A DNA stretch of 62,890 bases, the filler included, from Rhabdomonas costata (taxonomy: Eukaryota): NCBI GenBank assembly GCA_019059605.1. It is 55 parts of 55 records of this genome, joined end to end, with 100 filler letters (N's around TTAATTAATTAA, not from the genome) between each part and the next. Parts side by side here need not be neighbours in the genome. Positions count along the whole stretch, not along the records: positions 19,483 to 20,527 come from JAHMHO010031586.1; 54 more parts are not named here. One strand, 5' to 3'. Position 1 is the stretch's first letter. Each line of letters begins with the position of its first letter. Below are positions 17,344 through 22,920 of this stretch, piece by piece. Under the pieces are notes generated by a model, which saw nothing but the letters and a program-made list of their open reading frames with translations, searched no databases and was not told where the DNA came from. Made by a program: the position numbers and the translations under genes.

Positions 17344-19189
17344 GCCACAGCACACCGCGCCAAGGCGCCATGTGTGTGTGTGTGCTTTTGACTGCCTAAT
17401 GACTGTGGTGTGCTTTGGCTTAGCCCCTTCTAACACGCGCACTTCAGGGTGTGTGTGAGTGTGTGTGCGCGCGCGGGCGTGTGTGAGCCCTTTGGCCTTC
17501 CACAGCTTTCTTCTTCTGCGGAGTGCGTAGGAGAAAGGTGAGCACAGCAACAGCCAAAAAGTGCGAATCAAGGCAAAGGCGCGCTAAACACCGCACGTCT
17601 TACAATACACCGCTCCACAGCCCAAACCTTCAAAAAACTTCTGGCGAGGCACCCCTACAACCAAAGCACAAACGAATGCAAGAAAAAGATTTTAAACACA
17701 CCACACTTCAACCCACTGCGTTACGCAATTATCAACCTCCTATTCCAACACGTCAGGTCAAAAAGCCAAAAATCACTTCCAAAGCTCTTTTTGATTCGGG
17801 GTCTCGATGTAGAAGGTCCATTCTCGACCATCACCGCATGATCCTCGGAAATTCTTTGCTCCACCGTGTTCTCCTCGTTGAACTCTTTCACGATAGTTCC
17901 TGTACGATTGCAAACTCCTCCGCTTTCAACTTTCTAATTGCGATTTGATTTCTTTTCCCGCCGCTCCCTGTTTCCTACTGAGCCTCCGGCGCTCGAACTC
18001 TGCAAAAACCACCTCTCTCACCTCGATTTCTTTGCTGTTTTCTCTTCCCATTGCTTTCCTTCGTCTTACGAACCTGAAATCTTCTGAAAACTCCGCTTCT
18101 TCCTTTTGGCTGCCATTCTCTTTGTCTCCTGGCTTCTGTTTTGCTCGGCTTTTTGCTCAAACTCCGCCTTTTGACTGCTGCTACTGCTGGATCTTTTGCT
18201 TCTCTTTTGCTCCCTCCCTTTTTATGCCTGCTTCTCNNNNNNNNNNNNNNNNNNNNNNNNNNNNNNNNNNNNNNNNNNNNTTAATTAATTAANNNNNNNN
18301 NNNNNNNNNNNNNNNNNNNNNNNNNNNNNNNNNNNNTTGTGTTGGGTTGGGGTGTTGATGCAAATTGCTAATCGATAGAGCTAACGGGATTCATCGAGTC
18401 TGCGTTCCAGCCTTTTTTTCGCTTCGTTTGCGGAGAGTCGACTGGCTACTCTGGATTGGGGGGCCGGGGTTAGGTGACGGTGCCTGCGCAGACGTTTCCA
18501 CGGTTGCTATCTTTGTACAAGGGAAGCGTTGCTGCAGCCCAGTCTGCGAAACAAGGGTCAGCAAGGGCAGGACTGTAAGTAGTAGAAGCTCCCGCCTTGA
18601 GGCAGTCACCGTGAGTAGTAGCAAGAAGTTGCAAGGCGGTTGGGAGGATCGGGGACAAAAACCGTTTGCACGTGACGCTTTGCTAGATTGCTGTCATGTG
18701 CAGGTTTGTTTCACTGATGATGGTCCTTTTTGTTTGCCTCGCGTGCATGAGGGAGACGAAAGCGCAACCACCACAGGAAAAGCGAGCGCTTTAGTATTAA
18801 CGGTGTCTAAGTTCCACAAAACACAAACAAGCAATTTACAGGGATAACTCAAGGTTAATGGCTTACAGGGAGATAGGTGCACCTGCACCGCGGACACTAA
18901 CACCCCGCCTGCTGGGGCATAGGGCTGGAGTGTTGTGCAAACAAAATCCATAGGACAGAAGAACGGGATGGAGAGAGGAGAGGAAGAGGGAGTGGTGGCT
19001 ATGGAGAAGGAGCCATTTAGAAAAGCTACAAATGCTGTGGCTTCGCTTGGGCTGCCGCGTTTTTCGCCGTACGGTTTCCACTTGAAGTGGGGACGAGAGC
19101 TCTTTAATGTCGCTTGCTGGTAAACCGAGCCGCCCCCCGCCCCCCAGTGTTTTTTCTGCCTCTCACAAACCTGTTTTCCACGGATGCAG

Positions 19190-19286
19190 GTGCGACAACA
19201 TGCTTGTCCAGACCAACGGTGTGGTGAAGCTCGCTGACTTCGGGCAGTCCAAGGAAGCCTTCCTAATGCGCACAGTGACTGGAACG
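19190..19286 (+). CDS. Ser/Thr protein kinase exon (subdomains VIb-VIII, STE11/MAP3K-like)
   Basis: CDNMLVQTNGVVKLADFGQSKEAFLMRTVTGT, between a tgcag acceptor and a GTATGT donor. Confidence 0.9.
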
Positions 19287-20012
19287 GTATGTATGGGGTT
19301 GTTTTCTACCATGTTCCACGGCTGATGACGCCTTGCTGAAGGACTTATATGAGTGTGGGTGCCAGCGTAAACGTAATGCCGTNNNNNNNNNNNNNNNNNN
19401 NNNNNNNNNNNNNNNNNNNNNNNNNNTTAATTAATTAANNNNNNNNNNNNNNNNNNNNNNNNNNNNNNNNNNNNNNNNNNNNGGTTTTGTGGTGCTCTTT
19501 TTGCCATTTTTCTGCTTTCCTGACCTTCCATGTGCAGTTAAGGTGACGAAACGTTTGCGGTTTGCGATGTTGAATCGGTGGAGCTATTTTTTTGTTTCTC
19601 TTCGTGGTTTTTGTTCGCATATTGTGAATTTTCAGAATCAGATTTCGTTCACTTCGCAAACTTTTGTTTCGCCAAAGAGGAAGACAGGAAGCAAACTCGT
19701 CTCGTAACCAGAAGCCAGGCCATGGTCCAGCACAAAGTGGTGCCGTGGCCCTAGCATATTTCGAAACATGTTTCTGGGGTGGATGGGAGAGGGTTCCGGA
19801 ACACAAGGGGCAGTTTGTAATGCGATCGGTATGGGGAGAGTCAAGGTGAAAGCGGGAAACATCAGTTTTACCGATTTATGTTCCGTGTATTCACCTTTAG
19901 GGTTTTCTTGGTGACACTTGCCATCTGGCTCGCCTCAGTAACTCTGCGTTGAAGCAGGCTGTGATGCAATCGTTGAATGCACTTTGCCATTTTTTCCTCG
20001 GACCCTCTTCAG

Positions 20013-20527
20013 CTGATCCCCGTCCCAGCCCAAACGTCCTATTGCAATCTGGTTCGGAAGGACCTGCTGTTCAAGTAAAACGACTTTGTCAACTACACCG
20101 ATACCTGAACAGAACTGACGGGACATCCCAGACGTCCTCCGCTGACATGGATGGCCCTGAAATGTTTTACTCGAAGTTTTGGCGATCTCTTGGGGAGCTG
20201 CTGAGTAGAGTCGAACAGCGTGGGATGCACATTGAGCTTGACCGCCTGGAGAAGCTCCGGAAGAGCACAGGCAACTCGCAGAAACTGGACGGTTTCTTTC
20301 GATCCTGTGTTTCCGGCCTCTATACGCGGCTTCACTGCACTCTGAATTTGGGCTCGCGCACCGGACGTGTCAAGTCGGAAAACCCAGATCTTTGGAGCCC
20401 TCAGCTTTCCCAGCATCGCCACGTTCTCACTGCTCCGCCTGGAAAACGTCTCGTGGTGGCGAGCTACCATCAGCTAATGTTTCGCTTTTTGGCGCATTTC
20501 TCGGGCTGTCTTCAGTTGCGTGGCATG
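20013..20527 (+). CDS. Family A DNA polymerase (POP-like) homologue, predicted catalytically inactive, thumb largely deleted
   Basis: FYSKFWRSLGELLSRVEQRGM, RLHCTLNLGSRTGRVKSENPDL and LTAPPGKRLVVASYHQLMFRFLAHFSGC align with POP FY..W.PFGELL..ME..G, RVHCSLNINTETGRLS..PNL and APG..LIVADYGQLELRILAH..C. Confidence 0.8.
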
Positions 20528-20837
20528 NNNNNNNNNNNNNNNNNNNNNNNNNNNNNNNNNNNNNNNNNNNNTTAATTAATTAANNNNNNNNNNNNNNNNN
20601 NNNNNNNNNNNNNNNNNNNNNNNNNNNCCAATTAAGCTTGATTTTTGTTTTATGGATTGTTGAATTTGTGGGCTTTCTGTTTTCCTTTGAAACGCCGGGT
20701 CACAGCCCCTTTCCTTTGAGTTGTTTCTTCTTTCAATGTTTGACGAACCGAGCTGTACGGTTGAACCGACAAATTTTGGATTTACTGTAGCTCCTAGCGC
20801 TTGTACATCAGATTTTTTGTTGATCCTGCAAACCTCC

Positions 20838-21668
20838 CTCGTCAACACCTCATTCACCACCTGCACTTTGCCTGAAAACGTCCAAGGGCCTGGCGGCATG
20901 GAAACGAAATCCATTGAAATGGATTCCAATTTCCTCACGGGAACCTCCAACACCTGTGTATGGCCTCTTGGCAAATGGTGGTCCGCTTTGCATCTCTGAC
21001 ACACATCACAGGTACGCTCATAATCTCGCACCTTTCTCTTGATGTTCTTGAACGTGTAAGTGCGCTTAATCAAGGCGGCCGTCATGGACACTCCACAATT
21101 CCCTGCTGCGGGATAATCGTGGTACCGCAAAATAACCTCTAAATCCCTCTGGAAATGTACCACAATCTTCCCCAGATCCCAAAGTGTACCACAATGCCAC
21201 TTTGTAGGGTCCAACAACTCTGCAGTGGTCAAGTTGAAATACCTCTTCCGCACTACTGGGTCAAGCCAGTAGTTGGCCCACCAATCCTCTGGCTGCCACC
21301 CTTAAAGGTGAATAGAGCTGTTCATCGAACCTCAACGTCGCCAAACTCAACAAACACTCCATCTCTGGAAATCCCAGACTCGCCTCGTCCACTGGGTGCC
21401 TAGACAAGGCATCCGCAGCGACATTTTGCCTTCCGGGAATGTGGGCGATCTGCAAAGTACCTCTGCAATCTCTCCAACCACCGCACTTGCCTTGGCGAAG
21501 TCCGGGGTTCTTCTGCAAATAGCTTAACGCCGAGTTGTCCGCTTGAACTCTGACATCTGAACCCAGCAAGTAATGTCTCCATTGTTCCAACGTGTATGCC
21601 AACGCTAGCATCTCCTTCTCGTGCACTGGGTAGTTTTTCTCTGCAGTGGACAGCTTTCTGGAACAACA
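20838..21668 (-). mobile_element. Decayed Ty3/Gypsy pol fragment (RNase H, integrase zinc-binding domain, start of core)
   Basis: SRKLSTAEKNYPVHEKEMLAL..WRHYLLG..DNSAL, HIPGRQNVAADALSR, HD..AGN.G..CDVCQRCK and SISMDFV. Frameshifts present. Confidence 0.93.
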
Positions 21669-22920
21669 AACCCANNNNNNNNNNNNNNNNNNNNNNNNNN
21701 NNNNNNNNNNNNNNNNNNTTAATTAATTAANNNNNNNNNNNNNNNNNNNNNNNNNNNNNNNNNNNNNNNNNNNNTTTGTCATTGTGTCAGGTTTTTGTGG
21801 CCAGTTTACCTCGTCCAGTATACTACCGAGGCATTGCCCGCGCATTGTTCCAGAACTGGGACGTTCTGGGTGGAATAAGGCTTGCTTCTAAATCACAGCT
21901 TACTAACCAACAGATTTCCATTAGCACCTCAACCACACAATTGATGGGATGTATTTCCTCACTGAGCACGTCCTTTCGAGGGTGTTTATCCATATTTTAA
22001 TGCAGTCACTTTCACAGCTTTTCGGAGCGGTGGAATTTTCGTTGGATTTACTGTGATGAGACGGTGTGCTAGGCGGTGGGCGGCGGTGCCATCGTGATGG
22101 GTGATGCTCTGTGATGCCATTTCCCGGTGCGCTAGGCGGCATGGTGGTCGGCTGTGCCTCTTGTGTCTTCTTCCCTTGTGTGGGCGGGTGCGCCGTTATG
22201 TGCCGTTTTGTGGGAGTCAGGGGTCGGTATTGGGCCGCGGTGGTCGCAGGGCATCTAGGGAAAGACTGGTGTTCTAAGGCACGCGCCCTTGGGCCCCCAT
22301 GGCAATCAGACAACTCAGACGTAAGTCTTGTCGTTGTAGAAAAGCACAACAGTTAAGGGTCTGCTGATTCTTGCCTCGGACCGGTTCCGGCCACCGGGGT
22401 ACCGTAAAGGGGCTTTTGGCGTCGGGCTGCCGTCGACGTCGGACCAAGACGCCTGAAGGCGAAGAACCGCAGCACCAGCACAAGGTAGCAGCAGTAGCGA
22501 AAGAACATTCCCCAAAGGTTGCACGCGGGATGTCTTGGCTCACAGCTTTTCGAGATCGAAGGAAACCCACCCGCCACACTTGGTTCCGCACGCTTGCTTG
22601 AAAACACGAACCGCTTTGTCTGAAAGGAGTGGGCGGGTGATTGAGGGTAGATAAGGGACACGCCGAACGGAGACAACACGCAAATTACGAGGATATAAGT
22701 ATGAGGAGAAAAACGCGCGCCCCCTTGGGAAAAGGCCCACCCGACATGATTCGGCGTAGTTCTTAGAATTTGGGACAGAAGCCGAAAACGAGAACCCAGC
22801 ACCCTGGCGCACCAACCACANNNNNNNNNNNNNNNNNNNNNNNNNNNNNNNNNNNNNNNNNNNNTTAATTAATTAANNNNNNNNNNNNNNNNNNNNNNNN
22901 NNNNNNNNNNNNNNNNNNNN

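Follow-up and report, generated by a model that had tools for sequence, protein, structure and literature searches.

A Thumb-Less, Predicted Catalytically Dead POP-Type DNA Polymerase Homolog in the Euglenid Rhabdomonas costata

The Locus and Its Reading Frame

Draft genomes come in pieces, and the stretch of Rhabdomonas costata DNA that concerns us here (assembly GCA_019059605.1) is a window of 62,890 bases made of 55 separate contigs, each 1034–1049 bp long and 44–59% G+C, joined by N/TTAATTAATTAA/N linkers. Because neighboring pieces are not genomic neighbors, gene-order arguments across a linker are void. We have tried to focus on one of these pieces, the 1045 bp at positions 19483–20527, and on one question about it: what is the polymerase-like reading frame that runs off its 3′ end? 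We argue that the frame belongs to a homolog of the POP-type family A DNA polymerases that has lost its thumb subdomain and that is predicted, from the residues at its active site, to be catalytically dead.

The frame lies on the plus strand and contains no stop from 19901 to 20527, a run of 209 codons. An earlier note on this DNA had described an intact frame of about 170 codons beginning at 20013; that it is stop-free holds, but its extent had been underestimated. When the contig was shuffled by mononucleotides 2000 times, 6 of the shuffles gave a frame of at least 209 codons, all six frames being counted, and the frame ranks ninth by length among the 55 pieces of the window. Its end at 20527 is simply where the contig stops. 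One exon is visible, and the N terminus of this gene and its motifs B and C lie outside the contig.

At the other end, homology to relatives begins at 19901, right behind ...cacctttag (TAG at 19898–19900), and we therefore read 19900/19901 as a likely intron–exon border. The “cag” at 20010–20012 need not be an acceptor, since homology has already started at 19901. The sequence before the border has a G+C content of 46.6% (19483–19900), against 54.2% in 20015–20527; the whole frame has 54% and its third codon positions 57%. A search for an upstream exon on the contig found no frame in 19483–19900 that matches any of the five relatives compared (P0001, P0002, P0084, P0015 and P0006, all introduced below) at E ≤ 10, and scans of the window with Rfam and for tRNAs gave no matches. 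The features of the contig, all on the plus strand, are as follows.

19483–19900, plus strand: upstream part, probably intron sequence, with a pyrimidine-rich tract and AG (…ttccgtgtattcacctttag) at 19899–19900
19901–20527, plus strand: putative thumb-less POP-derived family A polymerase homolog, a fragment of 209 codons ended by the contig edge
19901–19936, plus strand: GFLGDTCHLARL, conserved segment of an exonuclease-like N-terminal domain, between the ExoII and ExoIII positions; aligns with P0001 200–211, GFAADTLHLARL
20066–20098, plus strand: AVQVKRLCQLH, helix at the ExoIII position, without an acidic residue; aligns with P0001 ...VKQLQQLFLKL and P0002 ...VRQLRRLFLTL
20165–20248, plus strand: FYSKFWRSLGELLSRVEQRGMHIELDRL, conserved segment 5′ of the thumb; aligns with P0001 295–322, P0002 63–90 and Taq chain 137–166
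20249–20326, plus strand: thumb stub of 26 residues, EKLRKSTGNSQKLDGFFRSCVSGLYT; its counterparts in relatives range from about 100 residues (Taq) to about 160 (POP_Rhabd1)
20327–20398, plus strand: RLHCTLNLGSRTGRVKSENPDLWS, degenerate RxH…TGRLS…PNLQN segment; alignment to Taq from 266
20453–20485, plus strand: motif A, VVASYHQLMFR, with Ser for the catalytic Asp at 20462–20464 and Met for Glu at 20477–20479

Homology to POP-Type Polymerases

Searched with phmmer against 1.84 billion representative proteins, the frame has 185 matches at E ≤ 0.001, 16 of them at E ≤ 1e-10; the best 150 of the 185 were listed, and 156 proteins were stored for later comparison. The best match is P0001, a protein of 794 residues (E 4.2e-18), and two shorter proteins that will matter more below are P0002 (408 residues; E 5.7e-15 in the same search) and P0084 (381 residues). 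A tblastn search on the contig finds P0002 at E 2.9e-22 and P0001 at E 1.7e-13 and 2.1e-12. The Pfam profile PF00476, applied to the frame by itself, scores 22.2 bits (E 7.7e-5, profile 93–173), which is under the gathering score of 34.3, and Taq polymerase chains match at E of about 0.07–0.1. The low profile score leaves homology secure, because phmmer matches reach the value given above for P0001. These comparisons support the frame as a POP-type family A DNA polymerase homolog.

The closest full-length relatives already have names. P0001 and P0015 match the supplementary rows POP_Rhabd1_LC516831 and POP_Rhabd2_LC516832, both of Rhabdomonas costata (PMC7238167), an agreement checked over about the first half of POP_Rhabd1 and most of POP_Rhabd2. 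In the portions of that paper that deal with them (Harada et al. 2020, PMC7238167), they are two POP homologs of a heterotrophic euglenid, predicted to be mitochondrial and seemingly without an exonuclease domain, and it is on the same portions that the POP membership of the POP_Rhabd sequences rests. P0001 is 40% identical to the frame over its residues 462–563 and 31% over 200–340, and the frame has in common with both POP_Rhabd proteins the segments FYxxxWRxxGELLxxxExRGMH, APPGKxLxVA and SxC. Plant POPs (Arabidopsis AtPolIA/IB) belong to the same broad family, and the plant-type proteins P0003 and P0006 are among the frame’s best matches.

What the frame and its relatives retain of an exonuclease deserves a word; of this region, the contig carries the portion past ExoII. 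The first segment of the frame, GFLGDTCHLARL, has G, D, T, R and L in columns at least 85% conserved among 74 other aligned proteins. The helix at 20066–20098 we take, by its position, to be that of ExoIII; in a structure model of P0002 the corresponding segment is a helix (residues 12–38). The earlier note had remarked that this helix is without an acidic residue, which is so, and had counted it among the special losses of this protein, which it is not: the exonuclease-like N-terminal region is without the ExoIII acidic residue both in the frame and in POP_Rhabd1/2, and P0001 has motifs A, B and C intact. Compared by eye with the plant-type P0006, P0001 and P0015 have also lost the ExoI DTE (TVSA in P0001, CDTE in P0006) and the Asp of ExoII (HNYSVC in place of the HNYSFD of P0006). 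These losses fit the published remark, in the part of the paper devoted to these proteins, that they “seemingly lack” the exonuclease (PMC7238167), though a homologous N-terminal region persists.

Loss of the Thumb

Between GMHIELDRL, which ends at 20248, and RLHCTLN, which starts at 20327, there are 26 residues, close to the 25 or so of the earlier note. In alignment with Taq, residues 89–118 of the frame correspond to chain 137–166 and residues 142–203 to chain 266–333, so that about 76 residues are missing; P0001 aligns in two blocks (frame 1–133 with 200–340, frame 113–207 with 462–563), and about 136 of its residues, the thumb, are without counterpart in the frame if the first block is taken to end at about residue 325. 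The same point can be made for the family at large. We measured an anchor distance from the FYxxxW segment to the SRIH segment, with phmmer anchors; of the 156 stored proteins, 106 had both anchors. P0002 has a distance of 65, P0084 one of 68 and P0016 one of 66, and the distance runs from 127 to 655 in the remaining 103 of the 106; in the window frame, counted by hand with the same anchors, it is 55. POP_Rhabd1/2, in contrast, have a full thumb (199 and 194).

With the thumb go features by which POPs are recognized. In the sections of Baruch-Torres and Brieba (2017, PMC5737093) that treat them, POPs are defined by three insertions, of which the thumb holds two, together with an active 3′–5′ exonuclease, and AtPolIB mutants with single insertions deleted remained active. 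The frame differs from the plant POPs in having lost both thumb insertions, POP-specific insertions 1 and 2, together with the whole region that held them, and in having lost the motif A Asp as well.

Is the gap real? The earlier note had held that no intron hides the thumb, and this is borne out: the frame runs unbroken through the junction, and in the proteins P0002 and P0084, which are colinear with it there, the gap falls at the same place. We have rejected a concealing intron on these grounds. A further possibility, which we regard as the least credible of those considered here, is that the gap is an artifact, that is, an amplification or assembly chimera or a contaminant contig. The contig is short, the earlier note had raised the possibility of a whole-genome amplification chimera, and amplified DNA was the starting material of one published euglenid draft (PMC8219788), which may or may not be the source of this window. 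The gap is not such a chimera, because P0002 and P0084, which come from other contigs, have it too; moreover, the reading frame is preserved across the junction, euglenid POPs and not bacterial or phage enzymes are its closest relatives, and the frame begins at what looks like a eukaryote-type acceptor. Thumb loss as a clean in-frame trait of the gene is thus supported.

The fourth protein with a short anchor distance, P0016, appears to be a different matter. It is a plant-type POP-like protein of 944 residues whose sequence jumps from ...VAKAEH to DDDYIDSLISNF..., which probably reflects a gene model with the thumb exons left out and not kinship with the euglenid thumb-less group. A profile made from the three thumb-less sequences returned eight proteins, among which P0002 and P0084 are thumb-less and the other six ordinary family A polymerases. 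A metagenome scan with the thumb-less profile gave 267 pattern matches, which came down to three loci (L001–L003) of 22–27% identity; these were rejected as thumb-less relatives. An ESM Atlas search with P0002 found nothing but generic family A clusters, mostly viral.

Catalytic and Conserved Residues

In motif A of the frame, LVVASYHQLMFR, Ser at 20462–20464 takes the place of an Asp present in 74 of 74 other aligned members of family A, and Met at 20477–20479 that of a Glu present in 92% of the 74, which confirms the two substitutions read in the earlier note. The Asp position corresponds to Klenow D705. The two thumb-less relatives have lost other things. P0002 keeps the motif A Asp and Glu, but its motif B Lys is Met and its motif C has gone from HDE to SSL; P0084 has Lys for the motif A Asp and G, R, H and R for the motif B residues R, K, Y and G, and its motif C reads QDE. 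POP_Rhabd1/2, with which these proteins may be compared, have all three motifs intact (A, ADYSQ.ELR; B, RxAKTxNFAVLYG; C, QVHDE). None of the three thumb-less proteins retains both metal-binding Asp residues, and the set of losses differs.

Could such proteins still be enzymes, polymerases or nucleotidyl transferases that work through other residues or with a partner that supplies the missing parts? P0002 does have the motif A Asp and Glu, P0084 has the motif C Asp and Glu, and Klenow mutants without the thumb tip are said to be still active, which we count on the side of this idea. None of the three, however, keeps the full pair of metal-binding Asp residues, P0002 and P0084 alike have a changed motif B Lys, and the pattern of loss varies from member to member, unlike what one would expect of a conserved alternative active site. 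We consider continued enzymatic activity very unlikely.

A second group of losses bears on the binding of DNA. In the window frame TGRLS has become TGRVK and PNLQ has become PDLW, four changes (L→V, S→K, N→D, Q→W) that fall in columns 88–96% conserved; the TGR Arg is kept in the frame and is replaced by Leu in P0084 and by Gln in P0002. The TGRLS and PNLQN segments, which presumably contact DNA, are altered in all three thumb-less proteins. The earlier note had proposed a retained pseudo-polymerase with a structural or nucleic-acid-binding role in the organellar nucleoid. In favor of the binding role, the palm–fingers scaffold is kept, and POP_Rhabd1/2 are predicted to be mitochondrial in the passages of Harada et al. 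that concern them (PMC7238167). The losses speak against this proposal. The thumb, the main duplex-binding element of these enzymes, is gone, the TGRLS and PNLQN segments are changed in every one of the three proteins, and P0002 and P0084 have lost the TGR Arg besides. A DNA-binding role is disfavored because the DNA-contacting residues are among those lost, and we think it improbable. Indeed, with the thumb gone, the presumed DNA-contacting segments degenerate and metal ligands lost, neither synthesis nor tight duplex binding would be expected of these proteins.

The losses fall on a background of conservation. Among the 105 columns conserved at 85% or more in the 74 other aligned proteins (a few columns at the ends are alignment artifacts), retention is 34 of the 44 covered for the frame, 60 of 85 for P0002 and 38 of 77 for P0084.

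The Thumb-Less Relatives

In P0002 and P0084 the reading frame stays open across the entire polymerase domain, including motif C, and PF00476 matches both above threshold (P0002, 157.4 bits, profile 89–381; P0084, 91.9 bits, profile 105–378) with matches that leave the thumb section of the profile uncovered. Between the window frame and P0002, identity is 42% by BLASTP and 47% in the MAFFT alignment, and between the window frame and P0084 it is 30%; the two relatives are 32% identical to each other.

Structure was modeled for P0002. The AlphaFold2 (AF2) model, from a 77-row alignment, has a mean predicted local distance difference test (pLDDT) of 87.3 and a predicted template modeling score (pTM) of 0.88; in the place of the thumb it has two short helices (residues 87–99 and 106–122). 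Foldseek matches the model to the Bst and Taq large fragments at E of about 1e-22, with a query template modeling score (TMq) of 0.72–0.74. That is, the model confidently predicts an intact palm and fingers fold with a stub for a thumb. At residues 213–235, where relatives have POP insertion 3, P0002 has a shortened fingers region, in which the confidence of the model is at its lowest (pLDDT of about 52 at 221–230), and reduction in P0002 is for that reason not limited to the thumb. A complex prediction of P0002 with P0001 290–794 scored 0.27 against a mark of 0.34; with the controls unfolded and the proteins’ own alignments unused, it counts neither way.

Catalytic residues lost, frames open in three members at 30–47% identity, and in P0002 the fold kept: these are among the marks by which one would know a pseudoenzyme.

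Phylogeny and the Question of Decay

We made two trees, a quick one (LG+G4, 28 rows, 524 columns) and a careful one (LG+C20, 19 rows, 513 columns), with rows hand-picked from the top matches, without a bacterial outgroup and with P0016 excluded; P0151, P0152, P0153, P0155 and P0156 were dropped from the quick tree since the anchor was not found in them. In both trees, the frame, P0002, P0084, P0001 and P0015 form one group (100/99 careful, 99 quick), which upholds the earlier assignment of the sequence to a euglenozoan POP type and by which we have rejected a bacterial or phage contaminant. In the quick tree, the three thumb-less proteins stand together at 82.

The frame, we argue, most likely belongs to a small and so far undescribed lineage of thumb-less, predicted catalytically dead POP paralogs in Rhabdomonas-type euglenids, and there are several points that weigh against this reading. 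The careful tree splits the three: the frame and P0002 (82/73) join P0001 (88/68), and P0084 stands apart on a very long branch. The thumb-less branches are very long, 1.3–2.2 changes per column in the quick tree and 2.8–6.6 in the careful one, and relaxed constraint would also give such long branches. P0002 and P0084 each come from a single contig, of 2653 and 1951 nucleotides, with source “ena”; they may or may not be transcripts, and may be either paralogs within one genome or orthologs from different species. Of the gene in the window, just 209 codons are on the contig, and motifs B and C and the remaining frame lie off it. Finally, word-index searches of 5.8 billion proteins with the frame gave none at E ≤ 0.01 (“longer,” 1113 candidates; “near,” 24). 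As for the trees, a single clade made up of the frame, P0002 and P0084 survived an approximately unbiased (AU) test without rejection (p 0.394, log-likelihood difference 0.34), and long-branch effects act in both directions because all three of these branches are long.

Much of this can be read as the signature of simple decay, and this is the main rival to our view: the sequence would be a pseudogene or relic, a decaying duplicate of a POP-type gene, in which the gap and the active-site changes are neutral and the frame is open only because the visible part of the gene is too small or its inactivation too recent. One exon is in sight, the end branch is long (1.6–3.2), the Pfam score is below the gathering threshold, the frame is without a match among predicted proteins in the word-index searches, and euglenid draft genomes are described, in the part of PMC8219788 that treats them, as fragmented. 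Set against these are the shuffles, of which 6 in 2000 gave a frame this long; the identity of 40–42% to the nearest relatives, a distance at which neutral drift should have brought stops and insertions or deletions; P0084 and P0002, which have the same gap and keep frames of 381 and 408 residues; and the 34 of 44 conserved columns kept, with the losses that can be named falling on catalytic positions and on TGRLS/PNLQN. On this evidence decay is a possibility to be taken seriously, and one that we are inclined to doubt.

It is here that the lineage and the copy part company. The earlier note had suggested that the gene is retained and not randomly decaying; for the lineage, the open frames of P0002 and P0084 at 30–47% identity lend this support, and retention of thumb-less proteins under selection seems to us probable. 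For the copy in the window, the conclusion is weaker: it could be a recently dead member of an otherwise retained family, and whether it is itself a retained, working noncatalytic POP paralog, the reading we prefer, is a question on which we find ourselves evenly divided.

Other Pieces of the Window

Two other pieces carry what look like fragments of coding sequence.

20628–21674, minus strand: fragment of the pol gene of a long terminal repeat (LTR) retrotransposon
21261–21674, minus strand: RNase H domain, PF17917 (E 2.6e-16)
20630–21301, minus strand: integrase zinc-binding H2C2 domain, PF17921 (E 1.2e-11)
19086–19325, plus strand (contig 18337–19382): short frame with ...NGVVKLADFGQSKE..., which resembles the DFG segment of a protein kinase exon

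The two retrotransposon domains lie in different frames that overlap near 21261–21301, which suggests that this copy is frameshifted and dead. The kinase-like frame, of 79 residues, has no Pfam match at E ≤ 0.01.

Discussion

How might a polymerase come to lose the subdomain with which it holds its template and nevertheless persist? We imagine that an in-frame deletion in an ancestor, presumably a single event, took almost all of the thumb, so that only a short stub of helices remained. From then on polymerase activity would no longer have been selected, and catalytic and substrate-contacting residues could have drifted separately in each descendant, while the palm–fingers scaffold and the open frame would have been preserved, by selection for the frame if we are right. 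The order of these steps is suggested by the differences among the members: because their losses are not the same, it may be that the thumb was lost first and that catalysis went unselected in all of the descendants thereafter.

The product would be a noncatalytic protein, a scaffold or adaptor that possibly works with active enzymes of the POP_Rhabd type. We favor such a role because the palm and fingers core is what remains conserved, and we recognize that the role, which is argued by analogy, and a mitochondrial location are both speculative. One can go further and suppose that the thumb-less dead POP family provides obligatory noncatalytic subunits of the machinery that replicates or repairs mitochondrial DNA in Rhabdomonas-type euglenids; this stronger proposal we regard as rather unlikely.

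The analogies are nonetheless instructive. ImuB of the bacterial mutasome, as described in the portion of the source that bears on it (PMC12926913), is a polymerase homolog without catalytic residues, often with structural elements deleted, that is kept as a scaffold. It belongs to another polymerase family, it is bacterial, and the thumb is among the elements that it keeps (the same portion of PMC12926913), whereas the thumb is what the frame has lost. In Pol epsilon, an inactivated polymerase–exonuclease module is retained and has a structural role, according to the part of Tahirov et al. (2009, PMC2669801) that deals with it. That module is a nuclear one of family B, joined in one protein with another that is active; the frame is of family A. 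A precedent nearer in family is an engineered one, for the Klenow thumb-tip deletion of Minnick et al. 1996 reportedly weakened DNA binding and lowered processivity. The mutant is reported to have been missing 24 residues and to have had its active site intact, whereas about 76–136 residues are missing from the frame, with catalytic changes in addition.

We have looked for descriptions of anything comparable. The words “thumb,” “inactive” and “pseudogene” have no occurrences in the main text of the survey of euglenozoan family A polymerases (PMC7238167), nor do “thumb,” “inactive,” “truncated” and “pseudogene” in the survey of organellar family A polymerases (PMC10877234). The parts consulted of a reclassification of family A (PMC10201439) have broken or extended thumbs and no thumb-less class. 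The papers listed by a literature search for inactivated polymerase homologs concern families B, D and Y; so far as these searches show, inactive homologs that have been retained are known in families B and Y, with the Pol epsilon module and ImuB as examples, and none surfaced for family A.

If the stronger proposal is true, these proteins would be the first pseudo-polymerase family described within family A, a counterpart of ImuB or of Pol epsilon’s inactive half. Small proteins with clear active paralogs for comparison make the case an easy one to test. A thumb-less dead POP lineage with several divergent members would bring something new to the mitochondrial polymerases of Euglenozoa, a set that is unusual as it is, and it would be, in effect, a natural experiment in what use can be made of the palm–fingers core of a Pol I enzyme once catalysis is gone.

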